A stretch of 64,000 bases of DNA from Candidatus Heimdallarchaeota archaeon. GTDB lineage: Archaea; Asgardarchaeota; Heimdallarchaeia; Heimdallarchaeales; Heimdallarchaeaceae. Location: assembly GCA_019057375.1 (NCBI GenBank), contig DXJF01000053.1, positions 13,268 to 77,267 on the forward strand, in the 5' to 3' direction. The notes below the pieces were generated by a model. That model saw only the letters and a program-made list of their open reading frames with translations, had not been told where the DNA came from and made no database searches. Position 1 is the stretch's first letter. Each line of letters starts with the position of its first letter. The translations under genes and the position numbers were made by a program. Shown here in pieces: positions 35,134-54,972 of the stretch.

Positions 35134-36501
35134 TTAGCTACTTACAGTGTGACCATCTATTGTCAAAGTAGAACTTTCTAATGGAAAGGGTAAATCAACA
35201 GGATCTGATCCGATATGCTGAATTTTCATCAATGATTCAAAGAAATTTCCTGCGATACTTACTGGTTTAAGAGGATGAACAATCTCTCCTTTCTCAACCA
35301 AATATGCATTAGTTGCAGTTATAGAGAAATCTCCAGTAATCATATTTGAATGTCCCATACCCATTGGAAAACCTTCAATGAAAATAGCTTTATCATATGC
35401 TGCAATTTGCTCGTCTTTGTTTTTAGTGCCAGGTTGTAGAACAAGTTTGTTAGGTGATATGGCAGGCATATTTTCATAACGTGTTGGTTCATTTCTTTGA
35501 GCATTTCCAGTACTTTTAGTTCCGAAAATTGGTCCATAGAAATTGTCAAACAGAAAGCTCTTTAGAACACCATCTTTTACTATTTCAGTTTTACCTATAG
35601 TTGTTCCTTCAGCATCAATAGCTTCTGAAGAAATCTTTGTTGGAATAGTACCATCATCATTCAATTGGAAATCTTTGGTTGCAATTTGTTCATTCAATTT
35701 ATGCATCAAAGGATTTTGTTTTTCGACTACAGTTCCACCATTAAGTCCTACTTGAAAAGTTGTGCTCAATAACATTGAAGCTGTTAAGGGTTCCCAGATT
35801 GTAGGGAGTTTAAGAGATTTTCCGAGAGGTTTTGAACCTAAGTGTTTGAATGCTTTATTGATCGCATTCGAACCTAATCCACTTAAATCTTGTATAGTTC
35901 TGCCAACTTTGAAGTCAAAAGCTGTTGAACGTTCTCCTTGACCCATAGCAACAGAGTACACTGTTCCATAATGAGCAGTATTAAGAGAGGAGACAAGACA
36001 GCCTTCAGTTGTTGCTACAGCAAAACCACCCCATTGAGTGCCCACTTCGATATCTGCGCCAACTAATCTTTGATCATCAATATCTGCTTCTTTAACTAAA
36101 CTAGCTAAATGTCCAACAAGAGTTTCAGTGTCAAGTTCAGTAATATTTGTATCTAGAATTCCTTCTTTTCCAGGTTTACTATCAGAAATAAAACCAGAAA
36201 ATCGTGGATCTTCAGGACGGTTTTTTGCAATCTTATGTGCATTAGCCAAAGTCGATTTAATGGAATCATGTGCAAACCCTGCACAAGTAGCAAAGCCAAC
36301 TTTTTTACCTTCGGCAACACGGATGCCAATTCCTTGAAGCATACCATCTCGGCATTCAGTTTTTCCTTTAGAATACTTCACTTCAGTTAGAGAATTCTTG
36401 ATGATGTAAGCTTCAGCAGTTTGAATACTCATATCTTTTGCATACTTTAGAGCTAAATCAGCTACTTCCAGTATTTCAGAACGTAATTTTTCTAGTACCA
36501 T
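35134..36501 (-). CDS. pmbA: PmbA/TldE metalloprotease non-catalytic subunit, copy 1
   Basis: GIGIRV..GKKVGFA, DAEG....T..VKDGVL..FLFD, STGNA.R, TGDFS..A..AY.VE.GEI; no HExxH. Confidence 0.9.
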   Translation of the reverse strand: MVLEKLRSEILEVADLALKYAKDMSIQTAEAYIIKNSLTEVKYSKGKTECRDGMLQGIGIRVAEGKKVGFATCAGFAHDSIKSTLANAHKIAKNRPEDPRFSGFISDSKPGKEGILDTNITELDTETLVGHLASLVKEADIDDQRLVGADIEVGTQWGGFAVATTEGCLVSSLNTAHYGTVYSVAMGQGERSTAFDFKVGRTIQDLSGLGSNAINKAFKHLGSKPLGKSLKLPTIWEPLTASMLLSTTFQVGLNGGTVVEKQNPLMHKLNEQIATKDFQLNDDGTIPTKISSEAIDAEGTTIGKTEIVKDGVLKSFLFDNFYGPIFGTKSTGNAQRNEPTRYENMPAISPNKLVLQPGTKNKDEQIAAYDKAIFIEGFPMGMGHSNMITGDFSITATNAYLVEKGEIVHPLKPVSIAGNFFESLMKIQHIGSDPVDLPFPLESSTLTIDGHTVSS

Positions 36502-36502
36502 T

Positions 36503-37918
36503 TTATTCGCCTCCGACTAGTACTTCATCGACAACGATGCTAGGTCCACCGAGTCCAACTGGTAATGGATATTGGCCACCTTTTCCACATCCACCAAAGT
36601 AAGATGTAAAGAGATCCATTTCTTTTCCTACACCACTAATTTGGCTGATGAAATCCAAAATTTGACCTGATAGTGCTGCATCTTTTATAGGTGTTGTAAT
36701 TTCGTTATTTTCTATTAAATAACCTCTGCTACATTTGAATAAGAATGCTCCATCTAAGCCAGCTTGACCGCCAGATGTACCAACTGCATAGATACCGTCA
36801 CCAACCATTTCAACTGATTCTTCTATACTAAGATTTCCTGGTTTGAAGTATGTATTTTTCATCCTTGGGATACTTGGGTACATGAATGTAATTGCCCTAC
36901 TATTACCTGTAGTTTCAGTGTTCATCTTGTTTGCTGTACTTCTATCGTGAAGATATCCAACTAGCATTCCTTTGTCCATCAAAACAGTCTTTCCTGTTTT
37001 AGTTCCTTGATCATCATACGGTAAGAAGAATCCTCCATATTCAGAGATACCTTCATCAATAATGGTCGCATGTTCGCTTCCTAACTGTTCTCCAACTCTA
37101 TCTGATATGGGAGACATGCCTGTTATAACAAAGTCTGATTCTGATAAGTGACCAAAACTTTCATGAGCTAGAACTCCTGCCATTCGTGGTCCAACAAGGG
37201 CTTTTTGTTTTCCACCTGGTGCTGCTACTGCTTTTGTTTGCTCATTGCAGTATTTTCCAGCATTTGTACCAATAGTTTCTGGATCTTTTCCTTTTAGTTT
37301 GAAATATTCCATCCCTTGTGATTGTCCTACTCCATCAGATCCTCTTGCCTGAGTTGTTTCAGTCATTGCTATTGCTACAATTCGCATATCAAACAAAAGT
37401 GGTGTCCAGTAGATTTCAGATTGTTCTGAGTTTACAAACAGTTTATTTCCCCAAAGTTCTCCCCATAATCCAATCGTAGATTGGGCATCAACTTGTTCTT
37501 TTGCACAAGCTACTCCTCGTTTTAACATATCTAGTTTTTCTTCAAATTCAACATCCATTGGATGTATTTTTACCTTATGTTCAATAGAATCCTTAATGAT
37601 AGGTCTATCTGAATATTTATGTTTGAATGTTAAAAGGGATTCAGTAGATTTAGCTATTCCTAAAGCTCTTTTTGTTGTTTCTTTTAAAGCATCAGTTTCT
37701 AGTATTGGTGTAAAGGAATAACCAGGTGACCCATTAATGCAGGTCATAATTCCTATTCCTCTACGTTGTTTTGTGGAAGATTCTTTGACTTGTTCATTTG
37801 TATAATTAATAGTTGTCAAAGTCAAATCATCATACCTTGCTTCAACAAAATCAGCTCCAAGTTTATGACCATGATCTACTGCTTTATGTAAAAGATCTAA
37901 GACATAATCTTTCTCCAA
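36503..37918 (-). CDS. tldD: TldD metalloprotease catalytic subunit, copy 1
   Basis: AHESFGHLSESD, YDDQG, TGNSRA..Y..PRMKNTY, CGKGGQ. Confidence 0.93.
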   Translation of the reverse strand: MEKDYVLDLLHKAVDHGHKLGADFVEARYDDLTLTTINYTNEQVKESSTKQRRGIGIMTCINGSPGYSFTPILETDALKETTKRALGIAKSTESLLTFKHKYSDRPIIKDSIEHKVKIHPMDVEFEEKLDMLKRGVACAKEQVDAQSTIGLWGELWGNKLFVNSEQSEIYWTPLLFDMRIVAIAMTETTQARGSDGVGQSQGMEYFKLKGKDPETIGTNAGKYCNEQTKAVAAPGGKQKALVGPRMAGVLAHESFGHLSESDFVITGMSPISDRVGEQLGSEHATIIDEGISEYGGFFLPYDDQGTKTGKTVLMDKGMLVGYLHDRSTANKMNTETTGNSRAITFMYPSIPRMKNTYFKPGNLSIEESVEMVGDGIYAVGTSGGQAGLDGAFLFKCSRGYLIENNEITTPIKDAALSGQILDFISQISGVGKEMDLFTSYFGGCGKGGQYPLPVGLGGPSIVVDEVLVGGE

Positions 37919-38063
37919 TTTTATTCACCTTTTTGGTTTAAATATTTTTTGAATTGTTGAAAAATTACTAGAGGAATTTATAAAAGTATGCAAAACCAGT
38001 TGGTTTCAAACTTAAACCAATAATAGTTAAAATAATTTAAAAAAAAGAAAAGAAATTTTTTTT

Positions 38064-39440
38064 CTAATCTGAAATTGTGTGTTTGTTATATGTTATTGCA
38101 GGAGCATCTATTGGCCAACCTGATACTTCTCTATCAGAACCAATAGTTCTAATGTCATTGAGTGTTTCAAAGTAATTTCCAGCTATACTTATGTTCTTCA
38201 ACGGATGAACAACTTCTCCTTTCTCAATTAAGAAAGCATCATTGGTAGTGATGCCGAAATCACCTGTTATCTGATTTGAGGTAAACAAGCCTATTGGAGT
38301 ACCTGTTAGTAGAATTCCTTTGTTAATTTCACTGATTTGCTGATCTAAATTTTTTCCAACTTCTTTAATCAATAATTTGTTAGGTTCAACATTTGGAACA
38401 TTTTCATATGGAATTCCACCAAAGAAACCCCCTCTAGAAGCATTCCCAGTTGTTGCTTTATCTGCTGCTTCTCCAAACATTTTATCGAAAAGGAAAGTTT
38501 TCAGAATACCATTGTCAATAACAGTTGTAGTTTGTTTAGGAGAACCTTCTGTATCGATTGCTCTTCCAGCTTCAGATTCTGGATTTTGTCCATCATCTAT
38601 TAATGTCAATTCTTTAACAGCTACTTGTTGGTCTAGTTTATCTCCCCATGGATTGCTTTTTTCAACATAGGATGATCCAGATACACAATTGATGAATGAG
38701 AAAGCTAAAAATGCTGCAGATTCACGTGGTTCCCAAACTGTTGGTAAAACCTCTGAACCTCCAAAAGCCTTAGAACCAAGAGAGTTTAATGCTTTTTTCA
38801 ATCCATTTGAACTGATACCTTCAACTGGTTTTATTTCTCTTCCTTGAACAAAATCCCCAGCAGTTTTTCTATCACCTGCTTCTGTTACCACCGAGAAACT
38901 GTTTGCTGCATAAGTTGTGACCAGAGATGAAGCTAAGCATCCTTCTGTAGTTGCTACTGCATATCCTCCATATGAGAAGTTTACTCCATAGCTAATAGAT
39001 ACAAGTCGTCTATCACTCAAATCAATTTCTTGACTCATTAAATTACAAGTTTCAATCATTGAGTCTGAATCAAGTTGAAGTATCTCAGGATCAAGGATAC
39101 CTTCTTTAGCTACATTTGTACCAGCTACAAATCCATTAAACATAGGATTCTTAGGACTGACATTAGCAATACTATGTGCATGTTTAAGAGTTGATTTTAT
39201 AGTTTCTTTTTCGAAACCTGTACAACTAGCAAAACCAACTTGTTTCCCTATTGCAACTCTAAGCCCTATACCTTGAATCAGTCCATCTCTACTGTCTATC
39301 TTGCCTTTATTATCTGTTAAATTGGTGTTTGAGAGATTATAGACATAAGCTTCTGCTGCTGGGATATTTAGATCCCTAGCATATTTAATTGTTTGATCAG
39401 CTATGTGAAGTATCTTATCTCTAATTTCATTTAAAGTCAT
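38064..39440 (-). CDS. pmbA: PmbA/TldE subunit, copy 2
   Basis: Collinear paralog of 35134..36501; DTEG, TTGNA.RG, TGDFG. Confidence 0.9.
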   Translation of the reverse strand: MTLNEIRDKILHIADQTIKYARDLNIPAAEAYVYNLSNTNLTDNKGKIDSRDGLIQGIGLRVAIGKQVGFASCTGFEKETIKSTLKHAHSIANVSPKNPMFNGFVAGTNVAKEGILDPEILQLDSDSMIETCNLMSQEIDLSDRRLVSISYGVNFSYGGYAVATTEGCLASSLVTTYAANSFSVVTEAGDRKTAGDFVQGREIKPVEGISSNGLKKALNSLGSKAFGGSEVLPTVWEPRESAAFLAFSFINCVSGSSYVEKSNPWGDKLDQQVAVKELTLIDDGQNPESEAGRAIDTEGSPKQTTTVIDNGILKTFLFDKMFGEAADKATTGNASRGGFFGGIPYENVPNVEPNKLLIKEVGKNLDQQISEINKGILLTGTPIGLFTSNQITGDFGITTNDAFLIEKGEVVHPLKNISIAGNYFETLNDIRTIGSDREVSGWPIDAPAITYNKHTISD

Positions 39441-40858
39441 TATTGGGCACCTCCAACGAGAACTTTATCCATAATCATGTCAGGACCACCGAATCCAACT
39501 GGAAGACCACCTTGGCCTCCCTTGCCACATCCTCCGAAATACCCTGTTTTAATGGTAACCTCTTTAGTTCCACCTTCAACATATTTCAGAAGCTCTAGAA
39601 TATTTCCAGAAAGAGCTGTGTTCTTAATTGGTTTAGTTACTTCTCCATTTTCGATCAGATATCCTCTACTGCAATTGAACATGAAATTACCATCAAGCCC
39701 AACTTGACCACCTGACATATCAACTGCATAAACGCCTGTATTTACATGTTCGACAGCTTCTTCGAAAGTTAAATCTCCTTTCTCAAAATAGGTGTTCTTC
39801 ATCCTAACTATTGGATTAAACATGAAATTGATTGCTCTACTATTACCAGTTAACTCTGAATTCATTTTCTTAGCTGTTCCTCTGTTGTGCAAGTATCCTT
39901 TAAGTATACCTTTCTCAAGAAGTACTGTTCTTCCAGTTTTTATTCCTTGGTCGTCATAAGGCAGATACAGTCCTCCATAAGGAGAAACTCCTTCATCAAT
40001 TATGGTAACATGTTCACTACCTAGTTCTTCACCAACTCTATCTGCAATTGGGGATTGACCTGTAACAACAAAATCTGCTTCTGATAAATGACCAAAACTT
40101 TCGTGCACTACCACTCCACCCATTTGAGGTGAAACTAAAGTCTTTGTTTTTCCAGAAGGTGCAGCTACTGCTTCTAATTGTTCCTTGCAATATGTTCCTG
40201 CATTAGTTCCCGTTATTTCAGGAGTTGTTTCTTTTTCTTCGAAGAATTCCAAACCTGTTGAAGCTCCCCATCCTGTGAAACCCTGGGATTGTTTTCCTTC
40301 ACTTATTACAACTCCACCCATCCTGATATCAACCATCAGAGGAACCCAATAAAGCTCAGTTCCTTCAGAATTAACTAGATATTTCTCTCCATAGATTTCT
40401 CCGTACAAACCTATGGTTGTAGTAACTTCAAGTTGTTCTTTGACTGCTGTTACTCCACGTTTAAGCATATCGAGCTTATCTGCAAACTCAAAATCTTTGG
40501 GGTGTTTTTTTACCTTTACTTCAATCTTTTCCTTGATAGTAGGTATTGAATCAAAGTCTAATTTGATTTTGTTTCGACTATCAGTAGATTTAGCAAGTTT
40601 CGCTGCTCTAATAGTTGCTTCTTTTACACCTTCTAAAGTTAACTCTGGTGTGTAAGAATAACCAGGCGTTCCTTGATAGTATGCCATTATACCTATGCCT
40701 TTTCTGCTGAGAGATGATGATTGCTTAATAATTTCATTTGTGTAGTTGATAGTTGTTAAATTAAGATCATCGTATCTAGCTTCAATAAAGTTGACTCCTA
40801 GATTTTCTCCCTTCTCAACAGCTTTATGCAATAGGTCTAGAATATTTCCATTTTCCAT
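39440..40858 (-). CDS. tldD: TldD catalytic subunit, copy 2
   Basis: VHESFGHLSEAD, YDDQG, TGNSRA, RMKNTY, CGKGGQ. Confidence 0.93.
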   Translation of the reverse strand: MENGNILDLLHKAVEKGENLGVNFIEARYDDLNLTTINYTNEIIKQSSSLSRKGIGIMAYYQGTPGYSYTPELTLEGVKEATIRAAKLAKSTDSRNKIKLDFDSIPTIKEKIEVKVKKHPKDFEFADKLDMLKRGVTAVKEQLEVTTTIGLYGEIYGEKYLVNSEGTELYWVPLMVDIRMGGVVISEGKQSQGFTGWGASTGLEFFEEKETTPEITGTNAGTYCKEQLEAVAAPSGKTKTLVSPQMGGVVVHESFGHLSEADFVVTGQSPIADRVGEELGSEHVTIIDEGVSPYGGLYLPYDDQGIKTGRTVLLEKGILKGYLHNRGTAKKMNSELTGNSRAINFMFNPIVRMKNTYFEKGDLTFEEAVEHVNTGVYAVDMSGGQVGLDGNFMFNCSRGYLIENGEVTKPIKNTALSGNILELLKYVEGGTKEVTIKTGYFGGCGKGGQGGLPVGFGGPDMIMDKVLVGGAQ

Positions 40859-41183
40859 TTAATTACCCCTGTTGTAAAATGTGTATTTCAAACGGATGTG
40901 GATTTGGATATTTATAAATAATTTCTATCAGTTGCAGAAGGAGTTAACAAATTCCTTCTAATTCCTTAAACTGAAACAAATTCAGTAGTAGGTCGGTGTG
41001 CATACTTTTGCACATACTTGATTTTAAGAAACTGGTTGATAAAACGCTTAGAAGCTGGTTTTTACAGTTTTAGTTTCTTTTCATTATTGATTTTTAATCA
41101 CTCTTTTCTATAACTATTCTTTTGTTCTTATCAAAATCGCCTAAGAGAAATTTACTTATATTGCTCTTATTTGAATTATTTAG

Positions 41184-42590
41184 ATGTTTAACCTAAAGAT
41201 ATCACTTGTAACTTCGACTGGATTACTATTAGCTTCAAAACCAGAGGACGTAGACTACACCAAGCAAATCTTAGCAACAGGTCTAATCACTGCTTTAATC
41301 TCATTCTCAAAAGAAGTACACCACAGAGAATTGCAATCAATATCTTATCATGATAGAACTGTTTCTTTCATAAGAGTTCATGATTTTGTTTTAATTCTTG
41401 AAACAATTGATGAAGAATCCACATTAACTGAAGATATTTTAAGACAGTTGCTTGAGAAATTAAAAACATGTACTAGTCCATTATTAGAGGTAGCAGACCC
41501 AGATACTATCACAGAAGGAGAAGCATCAATAATCTTAGATAGGTGTTTGAAAGATATTCAATTGTTAGATATCTCAATTTCAGAACGACCTTTGAAATCA
41601 GCAGAAATTGCACATTTCACTCTAGTTCATTCTGACAAAGGTTGGAAGATAAGGGATCAAGTTGGTTCAGGATCACATATTTCTATGATAGCTTTGATGT
41701 TAGATACTCTTAAAGCTAACGAGAAATTTCAAGGAAATATAACAGGAATTCTAACTTTTATAGAAAATGAAAAAAGTTTAACCTACACCATTATTGATAC
41801 CGATGGTGAAAAATCTAGAGTTGGAATTCTAAAATTTCCTCAAAGTCTGAATCTAGTTCTTTTTAGATTATTTAATGTTATGAACAATCATCTTACTTCA
41901 CTGAATGACAAAAAGGAAAAATTCAGTATGGAAGAGATTCTTCACAAAATTATGGAAACTGAAGATCCTGGAAATAGATTATCAAAAATCGATATGGAAG
42001 ATCTTTCCCCAACTTTCTTAGATAGAACTGTAAGTCGTAATCTTGACAAAGCAATTTACTCAGCTATTATTGGGGAACCTGTTTATGTAATTGGAGATAA
42101 ACCTACTGTGAAGCTAGTGATTGATTCAATGTCTCTATTTACTCAACATTTACAGACTTTTGTCAGCCATTGGACTGCAGAAGAGGATATAACAAAAATT
42201 GGTAAATGCGACCTACAAGTAAGATTTTGGGGTATGTCATCATTAGTCTACAAAAAATTTGTTGAGAAGGAGCTAATCTCTGAAAAAGATACCAATATCA
42301 ATCTAGAGACAACTAAGGTTACAGGAGAAAAGTCAAGTAATCATTTCAAAAAATTATTTGATACAATTAAGAAACTGTCTATTACCGAAGTAGTTACTAA
42401 AATAGTTTATGATTTGGAAAAATTAGTTGATTTATCATTGGATTTAACAGCTTTAGCATTGCTAGATAAAGAAAAAGCTAAAGCTAGATTAAAAGATATT
42501 TCTTCATCAAAGAGGTATGCTTCAAGCTTCTTCAAAAAATCGCTAGAGTTAGCAGTACAAAGGAATCCTCTACTAGATTTCTTAACTTAA
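41184..42590 (+). CDS. Longin + DENN-like protein, paralog 1
   Basis: N-terminal longin pattern (SLVTSTGLLLASK...GLITALISFSKEV...LQSISY); cDENN-like AIYSAIIGEPVYVIG..VKLVIDSMSLF; helical C-terminus. Confidence 0.6.
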   Translation: MFNLKISLVTSTGLLLASKPEDVDYTKQILATGLITALISFSKEVHHRELQSISYHDRTVSFIRVHDFVLILETIDEESTLTEDILRQLLEKLKTCTSPLLEVADPDTITEGEASIILDRCLKDIQLLDISISERPLKSAEIAHFTLVHSDKGWKIRDQVGSGSHISMIALMLDTLKANEKFQGNITGILTFIENEKSLTYTIIDTDGEKSRVGILKFPQSLNLVLFRLFNVMNNHLTSLNDKKEKFSMEEILHKIMETEDPGNRLSKIDMEDLSPTFLDRTVSRNLDKAIYSAIIGEPVYVIGDKPTVKLVIDSMSLFTQHLQTFVSHWTAEEDITKIGKCDLQVRFWGMSSLVYKKFVEKELISEKDTNINLETTKVTGEKSSNHFKKLFDTIKKLSITEVVTKIVYDLEKLVDLSLDLTALALLDKEKAKARLKDISSSKRYASSFFKKSLELAVQRNPLLDFLT

Positions 42591-42602
42591 AGTCATTTTT
42601 AT

Positions 42603-43361
42603 CTATTCTTCTTTTCTGACAAAATATCTATATCTATACTTTTCTCTGAAATTTAGTTTTTTGTATAAAGAAATTGCAGGTGTGTTTTTAGCTTCAACTT
42701 GCAAGTACATAGTTTTCAATTTGTTTATTTGAGCATAAGATAGCATCTTTCGCATAATAGACTCTCCTACACCCTTCCTTCGATAACTTGAATGAACATT
42801 TAAATCATATATGCCAATATATTCATTGTCGATTAAACCTAATACAATACCTATAATCAAATCATCTCTGAGCACTGAGCAAGTTATTTTTTGGTTAGAT
42901 GTTCTAGAAATTATCCTTCTGAACCCCTCTAATTTAGTAGAATCCATTTTTGTAAGATTATACAATGATTGAAACCAAGTTTCATTTACGTTCTCTTCTA
43001 TTAAACAATCATAACTGTTCATAGAAGCTTCATAATTCAGTTGTTCTATTTCCATTGCCATAACAATTGTTTCATCTATCATTCTGAATCCCTTATCTAG
43101 AAGTGTTTTTTTCAGATTACTGGGTGCATAGTAGTCCGGAATCTGGAAGATAAGAGGTAAATTGTTATTATTATATAACTTCTCTACAGCTGTAATATCA
43201 TGTTCAAGATCAGTCCCAGAATATGCTAGCGGTAAAACACTATTTGCTCTCTTAGTAACTCCTTCTGATAATCTTATCATCCATCCTTTATAGAGCACTG
43301 AATCTCTAGCCTTCCATGCATTATTTGTCAGTTCTTGAAATTGAAGTACTTCTTTTTTCAA
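42603..43361 (-). CDS. GNAT acetyltransferase (two-domain)
   Basis: GWMIRLSEGVTKRANSV; V...YRRKGVGE motif A; YLQVEAKN.PAISLYKKLNF. Confidence 0.9.
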   Translation of the reverse strand: MKKEVLQFQELTNNAWKARDSVLYKGWMIRLSEGVTKRANSVLPLAYSGTDLEHDITAVEKLYNNNNLPLIFQIPDYYAPSNLKKTLLDKGFRMIDETIVMAMEIEQLNYEASMNSYDCLIEENVNETWFQSLYNLTKMDSTKLEGFRRIISRTSNQKITCSVLRDDLIIGIVLGLIDNEYIGIYDLNVHSSYRRKGVGESIMRKMLSYAQINKLKTMYLQVEAKNTPAISLYKKLNFREKYRYRYFVRKEE

Positions 43362-43444
43362 CTAGACACCTTTTCATCTTTTAGAATGATATTTGTCTTT
43401 CCACTAAAGAAATTTACTTAAAGGAGATAAACACATGTTTTGGT

Positions 43445-44854
43445 ATGCGAAGCCTTCAACTATCATTAGTCACATCTTCTGGAATATTGTTGGCTTCCAA
43501 ACCTGAAACTCTCTCAGAAACACAACATATCTTAGCTTCTAGTCTCATAAGTGCAATCATAACATTCGCAAAAGAAGTTTATAGACAAGAGCTTCAATCG
43601 ATTTCATATCATGATAAGAACATCTCATTTGTTCAAATTTATGATTATATAATTATTATTGAAACAAAGGTAGAAGAAACACTTTTTTCAGATAGGCAAC
43701 TCGCTCAAATTATTGAACAAATTCGTATTAGTGCTGAACCTTTACTTTCAGAGAGAGATCCCGATCTCCTTTCTGAAGGGGAAGCAGCTTTAATTTTGGA
43801 ACACACACTCCATGATTTGTCCAATTTACCACTTTTCTTTGCGAAAAATCCTCTAAAAAGTTCTGAACCACTTTTATTTAATTTGGTTAGGTTTGATGAA
43901 ACTGATATAGAAATTATCGAATCTGTAGGCAAGAAAGAAGATGCAAATGAGATACTAGATATGTTGAAGAGATATAATCTGAATACAGAATTTGAAGGAG
44001 AATTAACAGGTATTCTTTTATTAACTCCAGAAAAGAAATACTCGGCTTTAGTAATCGTTGACGCAAAAGGACCTCAAACAATTCTTGGAATTCTAAGATT
44101 TCCTCGAGAACTAGACTATATAGCTTTCAGAATTTTTCCTCTAATTCAAGAAAAACTAAAGATAATTTCAGAACAAAATAATCAATTTGAAATGCTTGAA
44201 ATTCTAGATATCATTCAAAATATTGAAGATACAGGAAATCATTTCTCTACAGTTGATGTAGAAGATCTGTCACTAGCTTTTCTGGAAAATGCAATAGGGG
44301 ATGAACCTGATTCAATTCTATATCCAGTTATCACTGGAGAAAATGTAGTTATTGTTGGGGATAAATTAACTTCTAGAATGGTGATTGACACCCTTTCAAT
44401 CTTTAATCAACATATTGCTTCAGAAATAATCCAATGGATGGATGAAGAAATAGATGAAGTTAATGAAAACGTTAATCTGAATAATGGTCTATTTGGTATG
44501 TCATTACCTCAATTTAAGAAACTAAACTCTTCAGGAAAGATACCGGAAGAAGCAACAATAGTCAATCTAATTGATGGTGAGATTAAAGGACATAATGAGA
44601 GCACTCACTTTCTTGCTCTTTTTGAAAAACTTAAAGATCAAGATCTGGACAAGGCTTCAGTTATTATTTTCAATGAATTGAGAAAATTAGTATCAATGTC
44701 TTATATTATAACCTCATTCTCACTATATGATAAAGAACAATCTGAAAGGCTATTTAGGAAGCTATTTCAACATTCAGGATTTCCAGCAAGTTTTGTTAAC
44801 AAAGCAACAGAATTAGCATTGAAGAGAAATCCACTATTAACAAAGATTGTTTAA
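43445..44854 (+). CDS. Longin + DENN-like protein, paralog 2
   Basis: Collinear with 41184..42590 (SLVTSSGILLASKP, ELQSISYHD, EGEA, ILYPVITGENVVIVG, KA.ELA..RNPLL). Confidence 0.6.
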   Translation: MRSLQLSLVTSSGILLASKPETLSETQHILASSLISAIITFAKEVYRQELQSISYHDKNISFVQIYDYIIIIETKVEETLFSDRQLAQIIEQIRISAEPLLSERDPDLLSEGEAALILEHTLHDLSNLPLFFAKNPLKSSEPLLFNLVRFDETDIEIIESVGKKEDANEILDMLKRYNLNTEFEGELTGILLLTPEKKYSALVIVDAKGPQTILGILRFPRELDYIAFRIFPLIQEKLKIISEQNNQFEMLEILDIIQNIEDTGNHFSTVDVEDLSLAFLENAIGDEPDSILYPVITGENVVIVGDKLTSRMVIDTLSIFNQHIASEIIQWMDEEIDEVNENVNLNNGLFGMSLPQFKKLNSSGKIPEEATIVNLIDGEIKGHNESTHFLALFEKLKDQDLDKASVIIFNELRKLVSMSYIITSFSLYDKEQSERLFRKLFQHSGFPASFVNKATELALKRNPLLTKIV

Positions 44855-44878: not shown

Positions 44879-46309
44879 CTAATCTTCCTCTAATTCTATT
44901 GTTTTCTTGTGTAAAACGTGTCTTTCCCAATCAAAAGTTATTTGTCCATCTTCATGCTTTGTAAAGGGGATATCAAGTGTCCCATAATCTGTAATGATGT
45001 AGAAATCCATTACTTCAGGATCATCATTTTTAGGTATTAGAGGTGTAACAGATTTATCTGGCCAGTTATCATCTATAACGAAAAGAACAGAACCTTTTTG
45101 TTCTATTTTGAAAGTGATTGTCTTTTTGTAAGCTTCATATCTACCACATAAACTTCTGTAATGTCTCTTTCTCTTGTAATAAGGTATCTCTTCTTCTGGA
45201 TCCTTTCCTAGTAATAATGCAAAAGCTGTGAGCATTAAATACAGTGGACTCCAGTTAACGTTCTGCAATTGAGCATAAGTTAGATTTAATTCCGGAATAA
45301 AACCAACATACCCTCCTGAAACGCCAGACATTCCACCATGATATATTAATTTATAACCAAAAAAGTTTTCAAAAATCCTCCAACCATACCCATAAGCTGG
45401 TTTAGCACCTGGACAAAAGTGTGGATATTTTGATTGTATATTTCTATTATGAGGATTCAACATTTCTTTACTCAATGATTCATCTAGAACTTTTTTTCCA
45501 TTGAATGTTCCACCATTCATATGACAGTGAAGATAATTTGTAATTTCTTGAACGCTTGAAATCAATCCTCCGGCACCTGCAATGAAAGGTCCTGATAATA
45601 AATCTGTAGTTTCTCTTTCAATTTGTTTATCCTTCACGTTATAATTAAAACCCCTTGATGAATCTTTATCCTTTTTTACATCTTCAAGAGAAAAAGTACT
45701 TCTATTCATTTCTAAAGGTTGTAAAATATTCTCTTTGACATATTCCTCAAAAGATTTTCCACTAACTTTTTCAATAATTTGACCAAGTAAAGCAAAACCA
45801 CCATTCCAATAATAATATTTAGTATTTGGTGGACTGAGAACTTCAGTTTTTGCATCATTTACATGAAAAAAGAAATCACCCCAATTACCTAGGGGAAATT
45901 CTGGAGCCTTACCTTTGAATAATTGTTGATTTATTTGTGAGAAGTAAAAAGTCATTAGTGAGGGAATCCCAGATGAATGACTCATTAAATGGAGAATCTT
46001 TATTGGATTATCTTTAAATCCTAAATCTACTGGGATATATTTTGAGATTAGATCATTAATATCTAATTTGCCAGCTTCATGAAGTTGTAAAATTGCCATA
46101 CAGGTTACAGATTTTGTTATTGATGAAACACCATAGAGCGTTTCTACAGAAGCTGGTTTTACATCTCCCCTTTCTCTAACTCCAAAAGATCTCTGATATA
46201 TTGCTTCTCCATCTTTTGTCACAATAACTGACATTCCAGGAATCTTTAGATCCCTCATTACTTTAACAGTTTCATGTTCAAATTTATCCCTAAACAACTT
46301 AAGATTCAT
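44879..46309 (-). CDS. Serine hydrolase, beta-lactamase/penicillin-recognising peptidase family S12 (Pab87-like) with C-terminal domain
   Basis: SSITK (SxxK), YWNGG (YxN), HGG, LLG.IIE..SG. Confidence 0.9.
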   Translation of the reverse strand: MNLKLFRDKFEHETVKVMRDLKIPGMSVIVTKDGEAIYQRSFGVRERGDVKPASVETLYGVSSITKSVTCMAILQLHEAGKLDINDLISKYIPVDLGFKDNPIKILHLMSHSSGIPSLMTFYFSQINQQLFKGKAPEFPLGNWGDFFFHVNDAKTEVLSPPNTKYYYWNGGFALLGQIIEKVSGKSFEEYVKENILQPLEMNRSTFSLEDVKKDKDSSRGFNYNVKDKQIERETTDLLSGPFIAGAGGLISSVQEITNYLHCHMNGGTFNGKKVLDESLSKEMLNPHNRNIQSKYPHFCPGAKPAYGYGWRIFENFFGYKLIYHGGMSGVSGGYVGFIPELNLTYAQLQNVNWSPLYLMLTAFALLLGKDPEEEIPYYKRKRHYRSLCGRYEAYKKTITFKIEQKGSVLFVIDDNWPDKSVTPLIPKNDDPEVMDFYIITDYGTLDIPFTKHEDGQITFDWERHVLHKKTIELEED

Positions 46310-46351
46310 ACTACCACAGTCAGTTATGTTTATTTATACACTTATAAAAAT

Positions 46352-46410
46352 AACATATAGTTTATAACATTTTTGTTAAACATTAATTATTTTCCCGAAA
46401 ATCTTATATA
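46352..46410 (+). promoter_or_regulatory. Promoter of the SBP gene: AACATATAGTTT box, TTTTCCCGAAAA element, TATA
   Basis: Both motifs recur at 48329-48350, upstream of dppB. Confidence 0.55.
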
Positions 46411-46471
46411 TACTTATACAAATTCACTAACAAGTGCTTTGGCTAAAGGTCAAAGATACGAAAAAAAAGGA

Positions 46472-48226
46472 ATGATAAATTTGAATAAAAAATTCTTAAA
46501 ACTATCACTATTTTTTATGGCATTTTTAATGAGTTCGGCTCCTTTCTTTGCAGCAGTTGGTCAACAACCTTTCGTAGGTGGTAGACTAGTTGTACCTTTA
46601 AGTGCAGACATTCATGTTTTGACTCCATTTGAATATGGTACTACATATGAGGGTTATGTTCTTGGTCATATGTATGATTCTCTTGTACAATACGATGTTG
46701 ACAATCAACCTCAACCAGTTCTTTGTGAAAGCTGGTGGTATAATTCAACTTATGAGAAATGGATTTTTACATTGAGAGAAAACACTTTCTGGCATGATGG
46801 AGAAGTATTAGATACAGCAGATGTGTACTTTACTTGGACAACATTTTTGGATGATCCAACAATATCAAGAAGAAGTTGGCTTTACAATTATGTAGATGAA
46901 ATTACTGTGCTTAATGCTACAGCCATTCAAGTAGAATTCACTTATGGACCAAAGCCACAAGATGTTCTCATTGAATTTGCAGATGCATGGATAGTACCTG
47001 AACACCTCTGGAATGATAAGGATGTTACTACTTACGCTAATATTGAGAATCCTATAGGAAGTGGACCCTTTGTCTTTGAAGAATGGTCTCCTGGTCAATA
47101 TTTCAGACTCTCAAGAAATGCGAATTATTATCTTGATGGACCTTGGGTAGAAGAAAAGATACTCCAAATAGTCCCAACAATAGAAGCAGGATTTTATGCA
47201 CTTAGCGTTGGTGAACTTGAAACTCTAACAGATGTTCCTCCAGAGCTTGAATTAGTAGCTCAAAATGATCCAAATATCGATTCTCATGAATATCTCGATG
47301 ATTATATCATGTATTTAGGAGTTAATCATCGACGATGGCCAAATAACGTTACTGCTTTCAGACAAGCTATTCTACAAGGAATAGATAGAGATGCAATCAT
47401 TGAAATTGCAGGATTTGGCAGAGGATTAGAAGCTCCTGCATCTATGAGCTTACCTTGGGGACCCTACTACGATGATACAATACCTGATTATGCTTATGAT
47501 GTCTTAGCAGCAAATGCTACCTTAGATAGTATTGGTATAACTGATTCAGATGCAGATGGTTACAGAGAAGGTAATGGTACAGAACTAACGTTCAGACTAC
47601 TAGTGAGTGGTGAATACCAACAATCAGTTGATACAGCTACAATTATAGCAAGCTATATGAGAAAACTTGGTATTGAAGTCATTGTTGAACCTCTATTATG
47701 GGCCAATGTCTGGAAAAGAATAGGCGGACTTGGTGGCACATATGCTGAGAAATATGACTATGATTGGTGTTTCGCTGGTTGGGTAAGTTTCTGGAGTGAT
47801 ATGCATCCTAATTGGGCAGCTTGGATGTTCAATGAAGACCTGAAATGGGGAAGTGATAACTATAATATCCCAGGTTGGGAAGGTGCTTATCGTACTCAAG
47901 TGACCGACTTAACTAATGAAATTATGACAGAAACAGATGAAGGCGTTGTTCTAACCAAGCTTGATCAAGTTCAACACATTATAGCTCAAGAATTGCCATA
48001 CATACCAGTCAGAGTTATGGGTCGTATAGCTCTTTATAGAAATGATTCATTTACAGGTTGGGTAAAAGGTCCAACTACAGGTTTAGACAACTGGGAATCA
48101 TGGCTAGCTGTTCATTTAGTAGAACCAGAAGAAGGAGATGGATTCCAAGTTATGACTGCTGTGATTGCAGTAGGATTTCTACTTGTTGGATCTTTCTTAC
48201 TAAAACGACGACGACGCTTGAAATAG
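46472..48226 (+). CDS. dppA: Peptide ABC transporter substrate-binding protein (family 5) with C-terminal membrane anchor; start reassigned to ATG 46472
   Basis: W.FTLRE...WHDGE...DV.FT, PIGSGPF, RQAI...IDR.AI, QHIIAQELPYIP; C-terminal DGF-hydrophobic-KRRRR. The TATA lies downstream of the ORF-track start. Confidence 0.92.
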   Translation: MINLNKKFLKLSLFFMAFLMSSAPFFAAVGQQPFVGGRLVVPLSADIHVLTPFEYGTTYEGYVLGHMYDSLVQYDVDNQPQPVLCESWWYNSTYEKWIFTLRENTFWHDGEVLDTADVYFTWTTFLDDPTISRRSWLYNYVDEITVLNATAIQVEFTYGPKPQDVLIEFADAWIVPEHLWNDKDVTTYANIENPIGSGPFVFEEWSPGQYFRLSRNANYYLDGPWVEEKILQIVPTIEAGFYALSVGELETLTDVPPELELVAQNDPNIDSHEYLDDYIMYLGVNHRRWPNNVTAFRQAILQGIDRDAIIEIAGFGRGLEAPASMSLPWGPYYDDTIPDYAYDVLAANATLDSIGITDSDADGYREGNGTELTFRLLVSGEYQQSVDTATIIASYMRKLGIEVIVEPLLWANVWKRIGGLGGTYAEKYDYDWCFAGWVSFWSDMHPNWAAWMFNEDLKWGSDNYNIPGWEGAYRTQVTDLTNEIMTETDEGVVLTKLDQVQHIIAQELPYIPVRVMGRIALYRNDSFTGWVKGPTTGLDNWESWLAVHLVEPEEGDGFQVMTAVIAVGFLLVGSFLLKRRRRLK

Positions 48227-48248
48227 AAATGTTATAATCACAAAAATC

Positions 48249-48270
48249 AAATCCAGGACAACCTGGATTT
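48249..48270 (+). terminator. Hairpin AAATCCAGG-acaa-CCTGGATTT after the SBP gene, followed by a T-rich tract
   Basis: Perfect 9-bp stem directly seen. Confidence 0.55.
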
Positions 48271-48328
48271 ATCTATTTTTCTTCATTTACTTTTTAAATT
48301 TACTATTTAGCTTAATTTAATTTATCTA

Positions 48329-48360
48329 AACATATAGTTTTTCCCGAAAAATTTAAAAAT
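48329..48360 (+). promoter_or_regulatory. Promoter of dppB: AACATATAGTTT / TTTTCCCGAAAA / ATTTAAAAA
   Basis: Same two motifs as upstream of the SBP gene, directly before a TATA-like box. Confidence 0.55.
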
Positions 48361-48398
48361 ATTTCAATTATAATAGATTTAGAAATGGAGTTATAATC

Positions 48399-49637
48399 AT
48401 GTCTGTAATGGATTTTTTTCAACGTGTATACTCTCCTATATCTGGATTCTTTGAAGAAATATACGATTTTTTATCTGAAATTCTTCAAAAGGAAACAATA
48501 TACAAAGAAATACAAAAAGAAGATGTCTTCTCACAAAGAATCTCTAAAAGGTTTTTGATAATCGGATTTTATCCACGTATCTCCCCTCTTTGGTATATTT
48601 TATTGATAATAATATCATTAGTAAATTTCTGGCGAAATAAAAGACTTAGGAATTATGTTTTAAAGAAATTATTTTTTGCTGTGATTGCATATTTCATCGC
48701 AATTATTGTTGTTTTCATTATTTATCATGTATTACCAGGGAATCCAGCGGATCTTTTTGCTATGGATCCGCGCGCCGATCCAGCACTAAGGGACGCATTG
48801 CTACAGAGATGGGGACTAGACCAACCATTAATTAATCAATTTTTCATATTCCTAAGAAATCTTTTTCAAGGAGACCTAGGATATTCTTTTCTTCATAAAA
48901 GACCTGTTTCTGAATTGATTGGTGAAAGGCTTCCATGGACTCTTCTTCTGCTTGGTTCATCATTTGTTATTAGTGGTGTTGTAGGTATACTTCTAGGTTC
49001 TGTTGTTGCATGGAGAAGAGGTTCTAAACTAGATACAACTTTTGTTTTAACTTATAATGTTTACAATGCAATTCCTTTATTCTTTACAGGGATGATTTTC
49101 ATCGCAGTTTTTGGATATCAAGCTAGGATTAATAATTGGCCATTCTATTTCCCGATTCTAGGTGGAAAAACGCCTTGGATTAATATTGAAACCTCAGGTT
49201 TCTTTCTGGTCTTGCTTGATGTTCTTTGGCATTTAGTACTCCCACTTACAGTTCTTGTTATCTATGGAGTTTTAAGTTGGTCGTGGTTCATGCGAGGAAA
49301 TCTTATTAATGTAAAGACAGAAGATTACATTCAAACAGCAAAAGCCAAAGGTCTTAGTGACACACAAGTGCTTTTTAGACACGGTTTTAAAAATGCATTA
49401 CTACCTGTAATTACGAATATAGGAATGAGCATTGGTGGGTTAATAGGAGGATCCGTGCTTGTTGAAACAGTTTTTGGTTATCCAGGAACTGGTTCAATGC
49501 TTTATGAAGCTATTTTGTACGGAGATTATCCTCTTCTTCAAGGATCTTTCATTATTATTGCAGGTATTACATTGCTGGGACTCCTTTTAGCAGAAATTGC
49601 TTATGGTTTCATCGATCCAAGGATAAGGAGTGATTAG
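48399..49637 (+). CDS. dppB: Peptide ABC permease DppB/OppB with N-terminal extension
   Basis: LPGNPA, GDLGYSF, RLPWTL.L, EDYIQTAKAKG, ETVFGYPGTG, DPRIR. Confidence 0.93.
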   Translation: MSVMDFFQRVYSPISGFFEEIYDFLSEILQKETIYKEIQKEDVFSQRISKRFLIIGFYPRISPLWYILLIIISLVNFWRNKRLRNYVLKKLFFAVIAYFIAIIVVFIIYHVLPGNPADLFAMDPRADPALRDALLQRWGLDQPLINQFFIFLRNLFQGDLGYSFLHKRPVSELIGERLPWTLLLLGSSFVISGVVGILLGSVVAWRRGSKLDTTFVLTYNVYNAIPLFFTGMIFIAVFGYQARINNWPFYFPILGGKTPWINIETSGFFLVLLDVLWHLVLPLTVLVIYGVLSWSWFMRGNLINVKTEDYIQTAKAKGLSDTQVLFRHGFKNALLPVITNIGMSIGGLIGGSVLVETVFGYPGTGSMLYEAILYGDYPLLQGSFIIIAGITLLGLLLAEIAYGFIDPRIRSD

Positions 49638-49648
49638 GAGGAATAAAT

Positions 49649-50575
49649 ATGGGCATGAAAATAATTGGAAATATCTTGGATTCAATAAATATTAATAATA
49701 TGAAACGTAGACTGAGAAAACTGAATGCTTCCTTTAAAATATTTAGGAGAAACTGGATGGGAGTAACGGGTTCAATTTTATTGCTAGTTATTGTAATTTT
49801 AGCAATAGGAGGACCTAACTTAACAAAATACGACTCACATGCAGACGCTACAGTAATAGATCGACTCTTACCACCAAATTGGGATCACTTGTTAGGGACA
49901 AATAGATATGGACAAGATGTTTTTACAATTCTTTTAGATAGTCTAAGAATATCTTTACTAGTTGGGATTCTTGCTGGAGGTCTAACAGTTGTAATAGGAA
50001 CCACTATAGGAGTCGCAAGTGCATATATTGGAGGATGGGTCGACAATTTCATTATGAGAATAACTGATGTAATTTTAGTTCTCCCAGCATTACCTTTAAT
50101 GCTTGTATTAGCTTCCCTACCCTTCTTATGGGGGAGAACACACTGGTCAGTTATAGCATTCGTTTATGTTATTGTTTTTTGGCCAGTTTCCGCTAGAATT
50201 ATACGAGGACAAGCCTTATCTCTTAAACAACGAGCTTTTATTACAAGTGCAAGATCTGCAGGAGCTGGTAAATTTTACATTATTTTCAAACATATATTAC
50301 CAAATGTTTTTCCTCTAATGCTCACCATGGTCATAACATCAATGAGACAAGCTATTCTTTATGAAGCATTCTTATCATATTTAGGGCTTGGAGATCCTTT
50401 AAATTGGACACTTGGACAAATGCTTCATGTTGCTCAACAACAAGCAGCTTTCGCTTCGGGAGCATGGTGGCTTTTCTTCCCACCTGGAATAGCAATTGGA
50501 TTAATAACTCTAAGTTTCGCATTTATTGGTATGGCACTTGATGAAATAGTAAATCCAAGACTTAGAAAAAGGTGA
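49649..50575 (+). CDS. dppC: Peptide ABC permease DppC/OppC
   Basis: HLLGTNRYGQDVF, GGWVDNFIMRITD, ARSAGA...IIFKHILPNV, LSYLGLG, WWLFFPPG. Confidence 0.95.
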   Translation: MGMKIIGNILDSININNMKRRLRKLNASFKIFRRNWMGVTGSILLLVIVILAIGGPNLTKYDSHADATVIDRLLPPNWDHLLGTNRYGQDVFTILLDSLRISLLVGILAGGLTVVIGTTIGVASAYIGGWVDNFIMRITDVILVLPALPLMLVLASLPFLWGRTHWSVIAFVYVIVFWPVSARIIRGQALSLKQRAFITSARSAGAGKFYIIFKHILPNVFPLMLTMVITSMRQAILYEAFLSYLGLGDPLNWTLGQMLHVAQQQAAFASGAWWLFFPPGIAIGLITLSFAFIGMALDEIVNPRLRKR

Positions 50576-50579
50576 TTAA

Positions 50580-51740
50580 ATGGCATTACTTGAAATTAAA
50601 AACTTAAAAACTTACTATCATACCAGCACAGGAGATGTTAAAGCAGTTGATGATGTCAGTTTCAAGCTAGAAAAAGGAGAAGTACTAGGTCTAGCAGGAG
50701 AATCCGGATGTGGAAAAACTACAACGTGTCTTTCAATTATGAGAATGATACAATCTCCAGGTGAGGTTATTGAAGGTGAATTAATTTACGAAAATGCTTT
50801 CGAGGTTATCCTTAGAGATGAGAAATTCTTTAATAGATATTTACTTAAGAAAGTTTTTCCAAAAAGAAAAGAGAGAGAAGAACAGAGATCTAAAAGAGAA
50901 AAGTTAAGTTTTCGAGACTACCTATCTAGATTTAAGGATAATCAGATAATTGATAGAATATTGAAACGGAGAGAGATTAGAGACAAAACTCACAATTTAC
51001 TCACTCTTTCTGAAGAAGAAATGAGAAGAATAAGGGGAAAACATATAGCTATGATATTCCAAGGTGCAATGAATGCTTTGAACCCTGTTCATCGCGTTGG
51101 AAATCAAATTCTAGAAATGATCAAAATTCATGATCCAAAAATCAATAAAGATGTAGCATGGGAACAAGTGATTAAAATATTAGAAACTGTAGGTATTGAT
51201 TCTTCAAGAGCTAGAGACTATCCTCATCAACTTAGTGGAGGGATGAAACAAAGAGCATTAGTAGCTATGGCACTTGTAAACAATCCCGATATTATTATTG
51301 CTGATGAACCTGTAACAGCTTTGGATGTAATAGTACAAGCACAAGTTCTTAAAGCAACTAAACAATTACAGAAAGATTTTGATTTATCTATGATAATGAT
51401 AACTCATGATTTGTCAGTGATTGCAGAAGTTTGTGAAACACTTGCTATTATGTATGCAGGTAAAATTGTAGAATATGGAAAACTTAGAACTTTATTTAAA
51501 GAACCTTCACATCCATATACAAAAGCGTTGATAAACGCCTTTCCTAGCATATCAGGACCTAAAAAAGAGCTATTTGATATAAAAGGAGCCCCCCCTGATT
51601 TACGTAATCCTCCATCTGGATGTAGATTCCACCCTCGATGTCCTCAAGTAATGGATATCTGTAGTCAAGAAGAACCTATAAATACACCAACTAAGGATGG
51701 TTTTGTGGCTTGTTTTCTTTATCAAGGAGAGGAGAAGTGA
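50580..51740 (+). CDS. dppD: Peptide ABC ATPase DppD/OppD with a charged insertion of about 65 aa
   Basis: GESGCGKT, YPHQLSGGMKQR, ADEPVTALD, HPYT, GCRFHPRC. Confidence 0.95.
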   Translation: MALLEIKNLKTYYHTSTGDVKAVDDVSFKLEKGEVLGLAGESGCGKTTTCLSIMRMIQSPGEVIEGELIYENAFEVILRDEKFFNRYLLKKVFPKRKEREEQRSKREKLSFRDYLSRFKDNQIIDRILKRREIRDKTHNLLTLSEEEMRRIRGKHIAMIFQGAMNALNPVHRVGNQILEMIKIHDPKINKDVAWEQVIKILETVGIDSSRARDYPHQLSGGMKQRALVAMALVNNPDIIIADEPVTALDVIVQAQVLKATKQLQKDFDLSMIMITHDLSVIAEVCETLAIMYAGKIVEYGKLRTLFKEPSHPYTKALINAFPSISGPKKELFDIKGAPPDLRNPPSGCRFHPRCPQVMDICSQEEPINTPTKDGFVACFLYQGEEK

Positions 51741-51747
51741 AACAGAA

Positions 51748-52743
51748 ATGATAAAAAATGATGTAATTATTGAAGCAGAAAATCTGAGAAAACTATTTCC
51801 AGTAATGAGAGGTTTATTTTCAAAAGGAGAAGATAGTTTTGTACACGCAGTAGATGAAATTTCTTTTAAGATTCACAGAGGTGAGACTTTTGGTTTAGTC
51901 GGTGAATCTGGTTGCGGAAAATCAACAACTGGAATGCTTCTACTTCATCTGTTAAATCGAACTAGTGGAAAGATTTTTTTTAAAGAAAATGAGATAACTC
52001 GTATTTCTAAGAACATGCGTAAGGATATTCAAATGATATTCCAGAACCCTTATGATTCTTTAAGTCCTCGTTTTAGTGTTTTAAATATTATAGCTGAACC
52101 ATTAAGGCTTATGAAAATACTTCAAGATGAAAGAGAAATAGAGAAAAGAGTAATAGAGGAATTGGAGGATGTAGGTCTCGTTCCAGCAGAAGATTTTCTT
52201 AACAGATTCCCTCATGAACTAAGTGGTGGTCAAAGACAAAGAGTAGGAGTTGCCAGATCTTTCGTACTAGATCCTGAGTTTATTGTAGCAGATGAACCTG
52301 TTTCTATGCTTGATGTATCAGTTCGAGTTGGAATTCTGAAAATGATGAAAGAGTTAGCTCAGAAACGTGGAACTGCTTTTCTATTTATAACACATGACCT
52401 TGCTTTGGCTAGAGTGATGTGTGATCGACTTGCAGTAATGTATTTAGGTAGAATTGTAGAACAAGGACCAACTGAAGAACTAATACAACATCCTTTACAC
52501 CCCTATACACAAGCACTAATTGCTGGAGTTCCTAAACCTGATCCTGATGCTAAGAGAACAGAAGAGCTACCTATTATAGGAGAAGTTCCAAGTGGTATCC
52601 ATATACCAAAAGGATGTAGGTTTAACCCACGATGTCCTTATGCGACTGATGAATGCTCTGAAATTGATCCTATACTAGAACAAGCAGGTGATAAGCATTT
52701 TGTGGCTTGCATAAGATATAAGAAAATCAAAAATATAGAGTAG
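51748..52743 (+). CDS. dppF: Peptide ABC ATPase DppF/OppF (start reassigned to ATG 51748)
   Basis: GESGCGKST, FPHELSGGQRQR, ADEPVSMLD, GCRFNPRC. Confidence 0.95.
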   Translation: MIKNDVIIEAENLRKLFPVMRGLFSKGEDSFVHAVDEISFKIHRGETFGLVGESGCGKSTTGMLLLHLLNRTSGKIFFKENEITRISKNMRKDIQMIFQNPYDSLSPRFSVLNIIAEPLRLMKILQDEREIEKRVIEELEDVGLVPAEDFLNRFPHELSGGQRQRVGVARSFVLDPEFIVADEPVSMLDVSVRVGILKMMKELAQKRGTAFLFITHDLALARVMCDRLAVMYLGRIVEQGPTEELIQHPLHPYTQALIAGVPKPDPDAKRTEELPIIGEVPSGIHIPKGCRFNPRCPYATDECSEIDPILEQAGDKHFVACIRYKKIKNIE

Positions 52744-52771
52744 TTGTTAACAAAATACTGATGTGAGGTAA

Positions 52772-54943: not shown

Positions 54944-54972
54944 GCTAGAAATCAAAAATTCAATCTATCACT

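Follow-up and report, generated by a model that had tools for sequence, protein, structure and literature searches.

The genes considered here lie on a stretch of 64,000 nucleotides from a Heimdallarchaeaceae metagenome-assembled genome (Candidatus Heimdallarchaeota archaeon, contig DXJF01000053.1; 3.47 Mb in 159 contigs, 89% complete, GC ~32%); this stretch is referred to below as the window. Gene A (P0001, 41184..42590, plus strand), delimited by its open reading frame and translation, encodes a protein of 468 aa with a predicted longin-longin-DENN architecture, and gene B (P0002, 43445..44854, plus strand) encodes a diverged paralog of A, 469 aa long and with the same three-domain layout; between them, in antisense orientation, lies a gene for a GNAT acetyltransferase (42603..43361, minus strand, 252 aa). 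In BLASTP the two proteins align over their full length, 38% identical across 465 columns with a single gap (E 9e-110), a similarity far above chance that identifies them as collinear paralogs. Identity amounts to 54% in the first longin domain (LD1), 29% in the second (LD2) and 36% in the DENN domain, LD1 being the best-conserved domain of the family. The start codons of both genes are backed by N-termini conserved across orthologs, and the ratio of non-synonymous to synonymous substitutions (dN/dS), 0.10-0.29 for A and 0.10-0.17 for B, indicates purifying selection on both. Open reading frames and alignment bear out an earlier note on this DNA, which had described two co-oriented, collinear proteins of these lengths split by an antisense GNAT gene; the segments that it quoted (AIYSAIIGEPVYVIG and ILYPVITGENVVIVG), the VIDxxSxF motif and the ELAxxRNPLL tail are all found in the translations of A and B.

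The structural assignments are based on predicted models, that of A having been built with AlphaFold2 from an alignment containing 32 homologs; superposition Z-scores come from VIA-align, whole-chain structure searches were made with Foldseek, and PDB chains carry the protein names to which we take them to belong, judging from residue ranges. The model of A, with a predicted local distance difference test (pLDDT) of 83 and a predicted template modelling score (pTM) of 0.70, folds into three domains. LD1 (residues 1-127, 41184..41564, plus strand) has the order b-b-a-b-b-b-a plus a helix, and superposes on the longins of HPS4, a CPLANE subunit, Sec22, TRAPP, COPI and CCZ1 with Z-scores of 10.5-11.3, all tied; it resembles SNARE, adaptin sigma/mu, COPI zeta/delta and guanine nucleotide exchange factor (GEF) longins alike (Z ~10-11). 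The second alpha/beta module reported in the earlier note turns out to be a longin itself: LD2 (residues 128-262, 41565..41969, plus strand) shows the topology b-b-a-b-b-b-a and, when modelled on its own (pLDDT 89), comes nearest to the C9orf72 longin (7o2w_A, Z 8.6, 119 residues, 3.3 A), followed by a Lokiarchaeal longin (8yqg_B, Z 8.3), the Lst4 longin (Z 7.7) and FNIP2 (Z 6.1). The remainder of the chain (residues 263-468, 41970..42587, plus strand) is predicted to be a DENN domain made of an alpha/beta cDENN core and a helical dDENN part. Its residues 273-461 superpose on residues 346-558 of FLCN (6nzd_H, Z 11.7, and 3v42_B, Z 11.5; root-mean-square deviation 3.3 A over 173-174 residues), on residues 163-370 of DENND1A, which comprise cDENN and dDENN (Z 11.6 over 180 residues), on SMCR8 (Z 11.4) and on DENND10 (Z 9.9).

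The model thus displays the layout of a DENN module, a longin (uDENN) fold followed by a cDENN alpha/beta core and a helical dDENN, with one extra longin in front, which gives the predicted architecture longin-longin-DENN; the AIYSAIIGEPVYVIG segment forms the first helix-strand of the predicted DENN core. A longin-like N-terminus and a folliculin-type DENN in the C-terminal part had both been proposed in the earlier note, and the model agrees on both counts, the longin fold and the cDENN core (here of the FLCN/SMCR8/DENND1 type) being present. The whole-chain Foldseek search with A returned C9orf72 from its ARF1 complex as the best match (2.4e-7), together with DENND1A/B, and gave E-values of 4e-6 to 1e-4 for chains of BLOC-3 and Mon1-Ccz1. 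A search by shape in the Atlas retrieved a cluster of Heimdall proteins of 380 aa, matching residues 82-468 of A, 23% of whose members carry the Folliculin family PF11704, with the eukaryotic SMCR8/FLCN clusters ranking after it.

At the sequence level, Pfam and NCBIfam scans of A and B returned nothing above the cut-offs. Among sub-threshold matches, the Pfam family Intu_longin_1 recurs on LD1 in 20 of 39 family members, always below cut-off (best E 7.4e-5; for A, 19.3 bits against a cut-off of 23.7), and Fuz_longin_1 matches LD1 weakly, again below cut-off, in 3 of the 39. The precomputed annotation of a protein database places PF27109, which according to the Atlas is SMCR8_C (Pfam 38.1), on A and on 10 homologs. 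Several arginines in LD1 deserve attention as possible catalytic residues: R58 is conserved in the whole family, and A and the single-copy proteins share R48 and R64, at whose positions B has Q or E. Placed by standard longin topology, and not from coordinates, R48 (in the a1-b3 loop) and R64 (at the end of b4) would be expected to share an edge with G13, which sits in the b1-b2 turn. The arginine fingers of known longin subunits acting as GTPase-activating proteins (GAPs) are R164 of FLCN, R78 of NPRL2 and R147 of SMCR8.

The family to which A and B belong is small, with no more than 40 representatives (E < 1e-3) among 1.8 billion proteins in an exhaustive HMMER search, and the three-domain protein is restricted to Heimdall-class archaea; public records list homologs under the names Heimdallarchaeaceae or Heimdallarchaeum. 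Copy number was surveyed in 83 genomes of the class, 25 of them from the genus of the window (genomes compared carry G-labels and loci in them L-labels; G000 is counted within this genus). In 16 of these 25 there are two copies, located together on a single contig in 13. The sister genera within the family, two closed genomes among them, have a single copy, two other families of the class have one copy or DENN-level matches only, and no copy was found in one family of 22 genomes. In a maximum-likelihood tree (model LG+C20+F+G4), the A clade (support 100/99) and the B clade (100/98) form a polytomy with the single-copy proteins of two sister genera inside a family-level clade supported at 100/100, more distant homologs falling outside. 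Identity within the A clade goes down to ~52%, the mark of a deep radiation, and B has the longer branches, that is, it evolves faster than A. The duplication is thus late, having occurred within Heimdallarchaeaceae at or just before the radiation of the window's genus. With both clades lying inside a single archaeal family, the pair is not ancestral to distinct eukaryotic subunits, and its pairing is a late, parallel event, independent of the subunit duplications in eukaryotes.

Within the genus, the order A, antisense GNAT gene, B is kept in six genomes (G017, G025, G012, G031, G016 and G023), and A and B are directly adjacent, without the GNAT gene, in three others (G024, G020 and G010), with gaps of 218 bp in G024 and 56 bp in G020. 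One sub-lineage of the genus (G013, G028, G026 and G021) has an unrelated polytopic membrane protein of 480-490 aa, without Pfam match, in place of the GNAT protein (L007:9700-11142, L008:10598-12040, L026:5785-7230 and L017:6531-8003); profile comparison of the A/B family with this membrane protein revealed no relation. In G028 an integrase of the insertion sequence (IS) type (rve) has also entered the space between A and B.

In six congeners (G023, G016, G020, G010, G012 and G031) a cassette is found directly 5' of A and on the same strand, encoding a soluble protein of 164 aa, a GTPase of the Arf family, a multi-pass membrane protein of 277 aa and, in most cases, a flavin-reductase-like protein (L006:12503-14369, L012:12463-15193, L011:317-3030, L016:98-2842, L023:6392-9254 and L024:4754-7618). 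The GTPase matches Pfam Arf with E ~1e-40 and is 80-92% identical among these genomes, and no relation was seen when the profile of the A/B family was compared with the 164-aa protein. Since both deep branches of the A clade are represented among the six, the cassette probably dates back to the ancestor of the genus. The lineage of the window has lost it, the window itself lacking it together with its closest relatives G017, G025 and G024; the place that it occupies in the six congeners is here taken by a spacer of 325 bp (40859..41183), and a search of the window, spacer included, for remnants of the cassette found none. The genome contains at least 36 matches to the Ras superfamily above Pfam cut-off, 7 of them Arf-like. 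Also present in G000 (contig C135, L003:1186-2205, minus strand; L013:2920-3927) is a third, shorter paralog of 339 aa, which consists of first longin and DENN domain and lacks the second longin. It aligns with the DENN part of the family at an hhalign probability of 94%, shows a weak Folliculin_C match (E 1.2e-3) and lies 2.7 kb from a gene, on the opposite strand, for a 335-aa Arf-family GTPase with a C-terminal extension; scans of the genome with PF11704 and PF16692 gave sub-threshold matches only, one of them on this paralog.

Whether A and B pair with each other was addressed by complex prediction, in one set of runs for A:B with alignments for both partners and three controls. The pass mark is one that 58 of 80 solved complexes and 2 of 110 mismatched pairs reach. 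A:B obtained an interface score (ipSAE) of 0.41 versus 0.00 for the best control, a verdict of 'weak support' in a range (0.60 or under) that holds the passes of only 7 of the 80 solved complexes, yet both of the passing mismatches, and one that does not separate heterodimer from homodimer, as close paralogs of a true partner pass too. At least 89% of contacts are common to the runs, and the partner has a pLDDT of 77 or more. Because FLCN-FNIP2 and C9orf72-SMCR8 have already been solved, the pass may also reflect likeness to them; the predicted score shows resemblance to longin-DENN proteins that form dimers, and does not show that A:B is favoured over A:A or B:B. By this prediction, the heterodimer proposed in the earlier note is weakly supported.

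The reading favoured here, with a probability of roughly 0.55, is that A and B would be regulators of an Arf-like small GTPase and longin-longin-DENN copies of a known class. Their function is inferred from the fold and from the gene order in relatives. A and B would bind and switch a small GTPase, as does every characterised longin-DENN protein, and an Arf-like GTPase would be the most likely target, given the cassette found 5' of A in six congeners; with the cassette gone from this genome, the pair would need one of the seven remaining Arf-like GTPases. The conserved LD1 might serve as the GTPase-binding platform. It is somewhat more probable that A and B still pair with each other than that they do not, in which case the complex would be a facultative, not an obligate, heterodimer derived from a homodimer.

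A number of observations weigh against this reading and have to be set beside it. A shared fold is no proof of activity. The profile of the family has no match among all PDB sequences, even at E 10, so that the link to solved structures is via the fold only, and a local Pfam-A search found no DENN, Folliculin, Folliculin_C or C9orf72-like match in A or B. A GP motif just before strand 2 marks GAP-type longins and a class of Asgard longins, as described in a study of Asgard FLCN/SMCR8-type longins (PMC12290439), and this motif is absent from A, B and the single-copy proteins, in which LD1 has at that place an invariant G13 with L or I after it; LD2 of A has G153-W154. A and B are separate transcription units in this genome, with the antisense GNAT gene in between. 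No GTPase gene adjoins A or B in the window; an ortholog of the cassette Arf was sought in the genome and none was found, its Arf paralogs being 33-42% identical and in other contexts, and the cassette membrane protein was not found there either, so that the absence of the cassette from this 89%-complete genome is probable. Nor does the cassette flank the pair in G013, G028 and G026, or the single-copy homologs, which makes the Arf link a partial one. Finally, G009 has only B at the same locus, and in G021 the copy of B is split by stop codons. Next to the lone B-clade gene of G009 (L014, C75) a remnant of 49 residues of the flavin-reductase-like cassette gene was noticed at ~10293-10439, the trace of a deletion that took A and the Arf cassette out of that genome.

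As to the direction in which such a regulator would act, the sequences lean slightly towards an exchange factor over a GAP, because the GP motif is absent and LD1 weakly resembles the first longin of Mon1-Ccz1, Inturned and HPS4. That A and B are instead longin-based GAPs of the FLCN/SMCR8 kind, with one of the LD1 arginines of A (R48, R58 or R64) as the finger and B as the non-catalytic partner, is unlikely, even though R58 is conserved family-wide, R48 and R64 are replaced in B alone and should, from longin topology, share an edge with G13, and the closest whole-chain match of A is C9orf72 from an Arf1 GAP complex; against it stand the lack of the GP motif from both longins and the faint sequence-level match of LD1 to longins of exchange factors. 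Somewhat less doubtful, but still below an even chance by a good distance, is the view that A and B went separate ways, each working alone or as a homodimer, with a different GTPase or in a different place, and that their adjacency is a relic of tandem duplication. The single-copy homologs can evidently do without a paralog, G009 has B alone, A and B are transcribed separately, with a GNAT gene, a 480-aa membrane protein or an IS integrase inserted between them in different lineages, and LD2 has diverged to 29% identity. What this view does not readily accommodate is that the copies have stayed side by side across a deep radiation (~52% identity), to the point of a 56-bp gap in G020, that the heterodimer prediction passes, if weakly, and that the loss of R48/R64 in B alone agrees with a complex whose two subunits have divided their tasks. 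A more specific variant of the favoured reading takes this last point further: a homodimeric regulator would have been duplicated within the genus into an asymmetric heterodimer, A keeping R48/R64, the faster-evolving B losing them, and the upstream Arf being the ancestral client. Such a sequence of events is quite unlikely as a whole; if true, archaea would have repeated, independently, the step that gave rise to C9orf72-SMCR8 and FLCN-FNIP, and this in a protein where, in addition, a Mon1-Ccz1-like first longin is combined with DENN.

Two further explanations are weaker still. The fold may serve other ends than the control of a GTPase, for example as a membrane adaptor or scaffold comparable to the longins of SNAREs and adaptor complexes, which would agree with the equally good fit of LD1 to SNARE, adaptin sigma/mu, COPI zeta/delta and GEF longins, and with the lack of an adjacent GTPase gene in this genome and beside the single-copy homologs. 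To our knowledge, the combination of longin and DENN is known from GTPase regulators only, and this, together with the Arf cassette directly 5' of A in six congeners, makes an adaptor very unlikely. Little credence at all can be given to the proposal of the earlier note that A:B is an obligate heterodimeric GAP/GEF and an archaeal prototype of FLCN:FNIP, C9orf72:SMCR8 or NPRL2:NPRL3, tied to peptide or amino-acid sensing. The longin and DENN folds are indeed present, the paralogs are adjacent in 13 genomes, the complex prediction passes weakly (0.41 vs 0.00), and a B protein devoid of two arginines kept in A recalls catalytic and non-catalytic subunits. The prototype is nevertheless largely refuted by the tree and by synteny: A and B are closest to each other, as sister-like clades from a duplication within one archaeal family, and not to different eukaryotic subunits. 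Nor can the pair be obligate, with one copy in the sister genera and in two closed genomes, and B alone in G009; the GP motif is missing, and no Rag-type GTPase is nearby.

The physiological half of that proposal depends on the flanks, which are as the earlier note had stated: on the side of A, two tandem TldD/PmbA pairs, four genes in all (35134-40858, minus strand), and on the side of B, from 44879 on, a beta-lactamase/Pab87-type peptidase and an Opp/Dpp ABC transporter. In all relatives that were compared, the genes after B are homologs of those found from 56181 onward in the window, and the block 44879-56019, which contains the Pab87/beta-lactamase-type peptidase, the Opp/Dpp transporter, a protein with TPR and an ArsR-type winged helix-turn-helix (52772-54943) and a 348-aa gene, is absent beside B; it appears to have been inserted in this genome only. 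TldD/PmbA genes are near A only within the genus, usually with the Arf cassette in between, and the single-copy homologs adjoin primase, alanyl-tRNA synthetase (AlaRS), pyridoxal phosphate (PLP)-enzyme or HEAT-repeat genes, all unrelated contexts. A link to peptide or amino-acid supply is thus rejected by synteny, and nothing ties the A/B pair to the sensing of either. In short, the earlier note was right in what it observed and in the fold, but went too far in what it concluded about evolution and physiology.

In eukaryotes, membrane traffic and nutrient signalling depend centrally on longin-DENN regulators of Rab, Arf and Rag GTPases, and the occurrence of such proteins in Heimdall archaea bears on the origin of the eukaryotic GTPase machinery. 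DENN-domain proteins have been reported in Asgard archaea by Liu et al. (bioRxiv 10.1101/2020.10.19.343400), whose preprint describes Heimdall proteins with folliculin architecture, expanded paralog families of non-eukaryotic architectures, and an operon in which a DENN protein is encoded together with a small GTPase and a Roadblock-type protein. A and B share with those proteins the Heimdall-group origin, the order longin then DENN and the expansion into paralog families, as well as the GTPase link, the relatives of A and B having a small GTPase together with a small gene that is a candidate Roadblock/longin-like counterpart (the 164-aa protein). They appear to differ from the proteins described there by a second longin between the first longin and DENN, and the operon GTPase is called 'Rab-like' in the preprint, the neighbour in the relatives of A and B being Arf-type by Pfam and the cassette missing in this genome. 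Within the A-B locus of the window, no gene for a Roadblock-type protein or a small GTPase was found, and the upstream spacer is empty. A and B thus belong to a published class of Asgard longin-DENN proteins and do not constitute a new one; a literature search found no paper on the double-longin family, the tandem pair or the Arf cassette.

Among eukaryotic systems, the FLCN-FNIP and C9orf72-SMCR8 complexes (6nzd, 8dhb, 7mge, 6lt0 and 7o2w) resemble A and B in the DENN domain, which superposes on FLCN and SMCR8 with the Z-scores given above, in an LD2 nearest to the longins of C9orf72 and Lst4, and in having two paralogous subunits, matched here by the weak heterodimer pass. Unlike them, A and B have an extra N-terminal longin, no GP motif and only a candidate arginine finger; their duplication is independent and recent, they are not orthologs of distinct eukaryotic subunits, and they have neither a sequence-level match to the solved chains nor a Rag or Ragulator context. 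The tri-longin Rab exchange factors (Mon1-Ccz1, Fuzzy-Inturned and HPS1-HPS4/BLOC-3) are likewise paralog heterodimers of three-domain subunits whose first two domains are longins, and it is to their Inturned and Fuzzy families that LD1 has its weak matches (20 and 3 of 39, below curated cut-off); the third domain of A differs from theirs in being a predicted DENN, with a parallel alpha/beta core and a helical bundle, and not a longin. With the Rab35 exchange factors DENND1A/B (3tw8, 6ekk), A and B share the order longin (uDENN), cDENN, dDENN (Foldseek E ~1e-6), DENND1 being, in contrast, a monomer with one longin, and A and B being without a Pfam DENN-family match.

Apart from replacing a tempting but unsupported account of a peptide-sensing FLCN:FNIP prototype, the comparison uncovers a natural series, namely genomes with a single copy, tandem pairs with the Arf cassette, pairs without the cassette (as in this genome) and a genome with B only, which lets one ask about dimerisation, about the GTPase client and about the route from a homodimer to an asymmetric heterodimer.

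The neighbouring genes offer some observations of their own. The GNAT protein (42603-43361) matches Pfam Acetyltransf_1 (E 1.8e-14) and Rv0428c_C (E 1.2e-20), and reaches E 2.5e-29 against the NCBIfam CG3035 N-acetylglutamate-synthase family, far below that family's cut-off. It diverges faster than its neighbours, with 63% identity to its counterpart in G025 as against 82% for A and 88% for B. The TldD/PmbA genes occur at this place in relatives as one or two pairs, so that the pair itself has been duplicated. A further gene (59936-60538, minus strand) encodes a protein of 200 aa that starts like a longin and contains Cys/His-rich inserts, to which no Pfam family was matched and whose profile showed no relation to the A/B family; it is syntenic in relatives, where it lies a few genes from B, with 64-89% identity.

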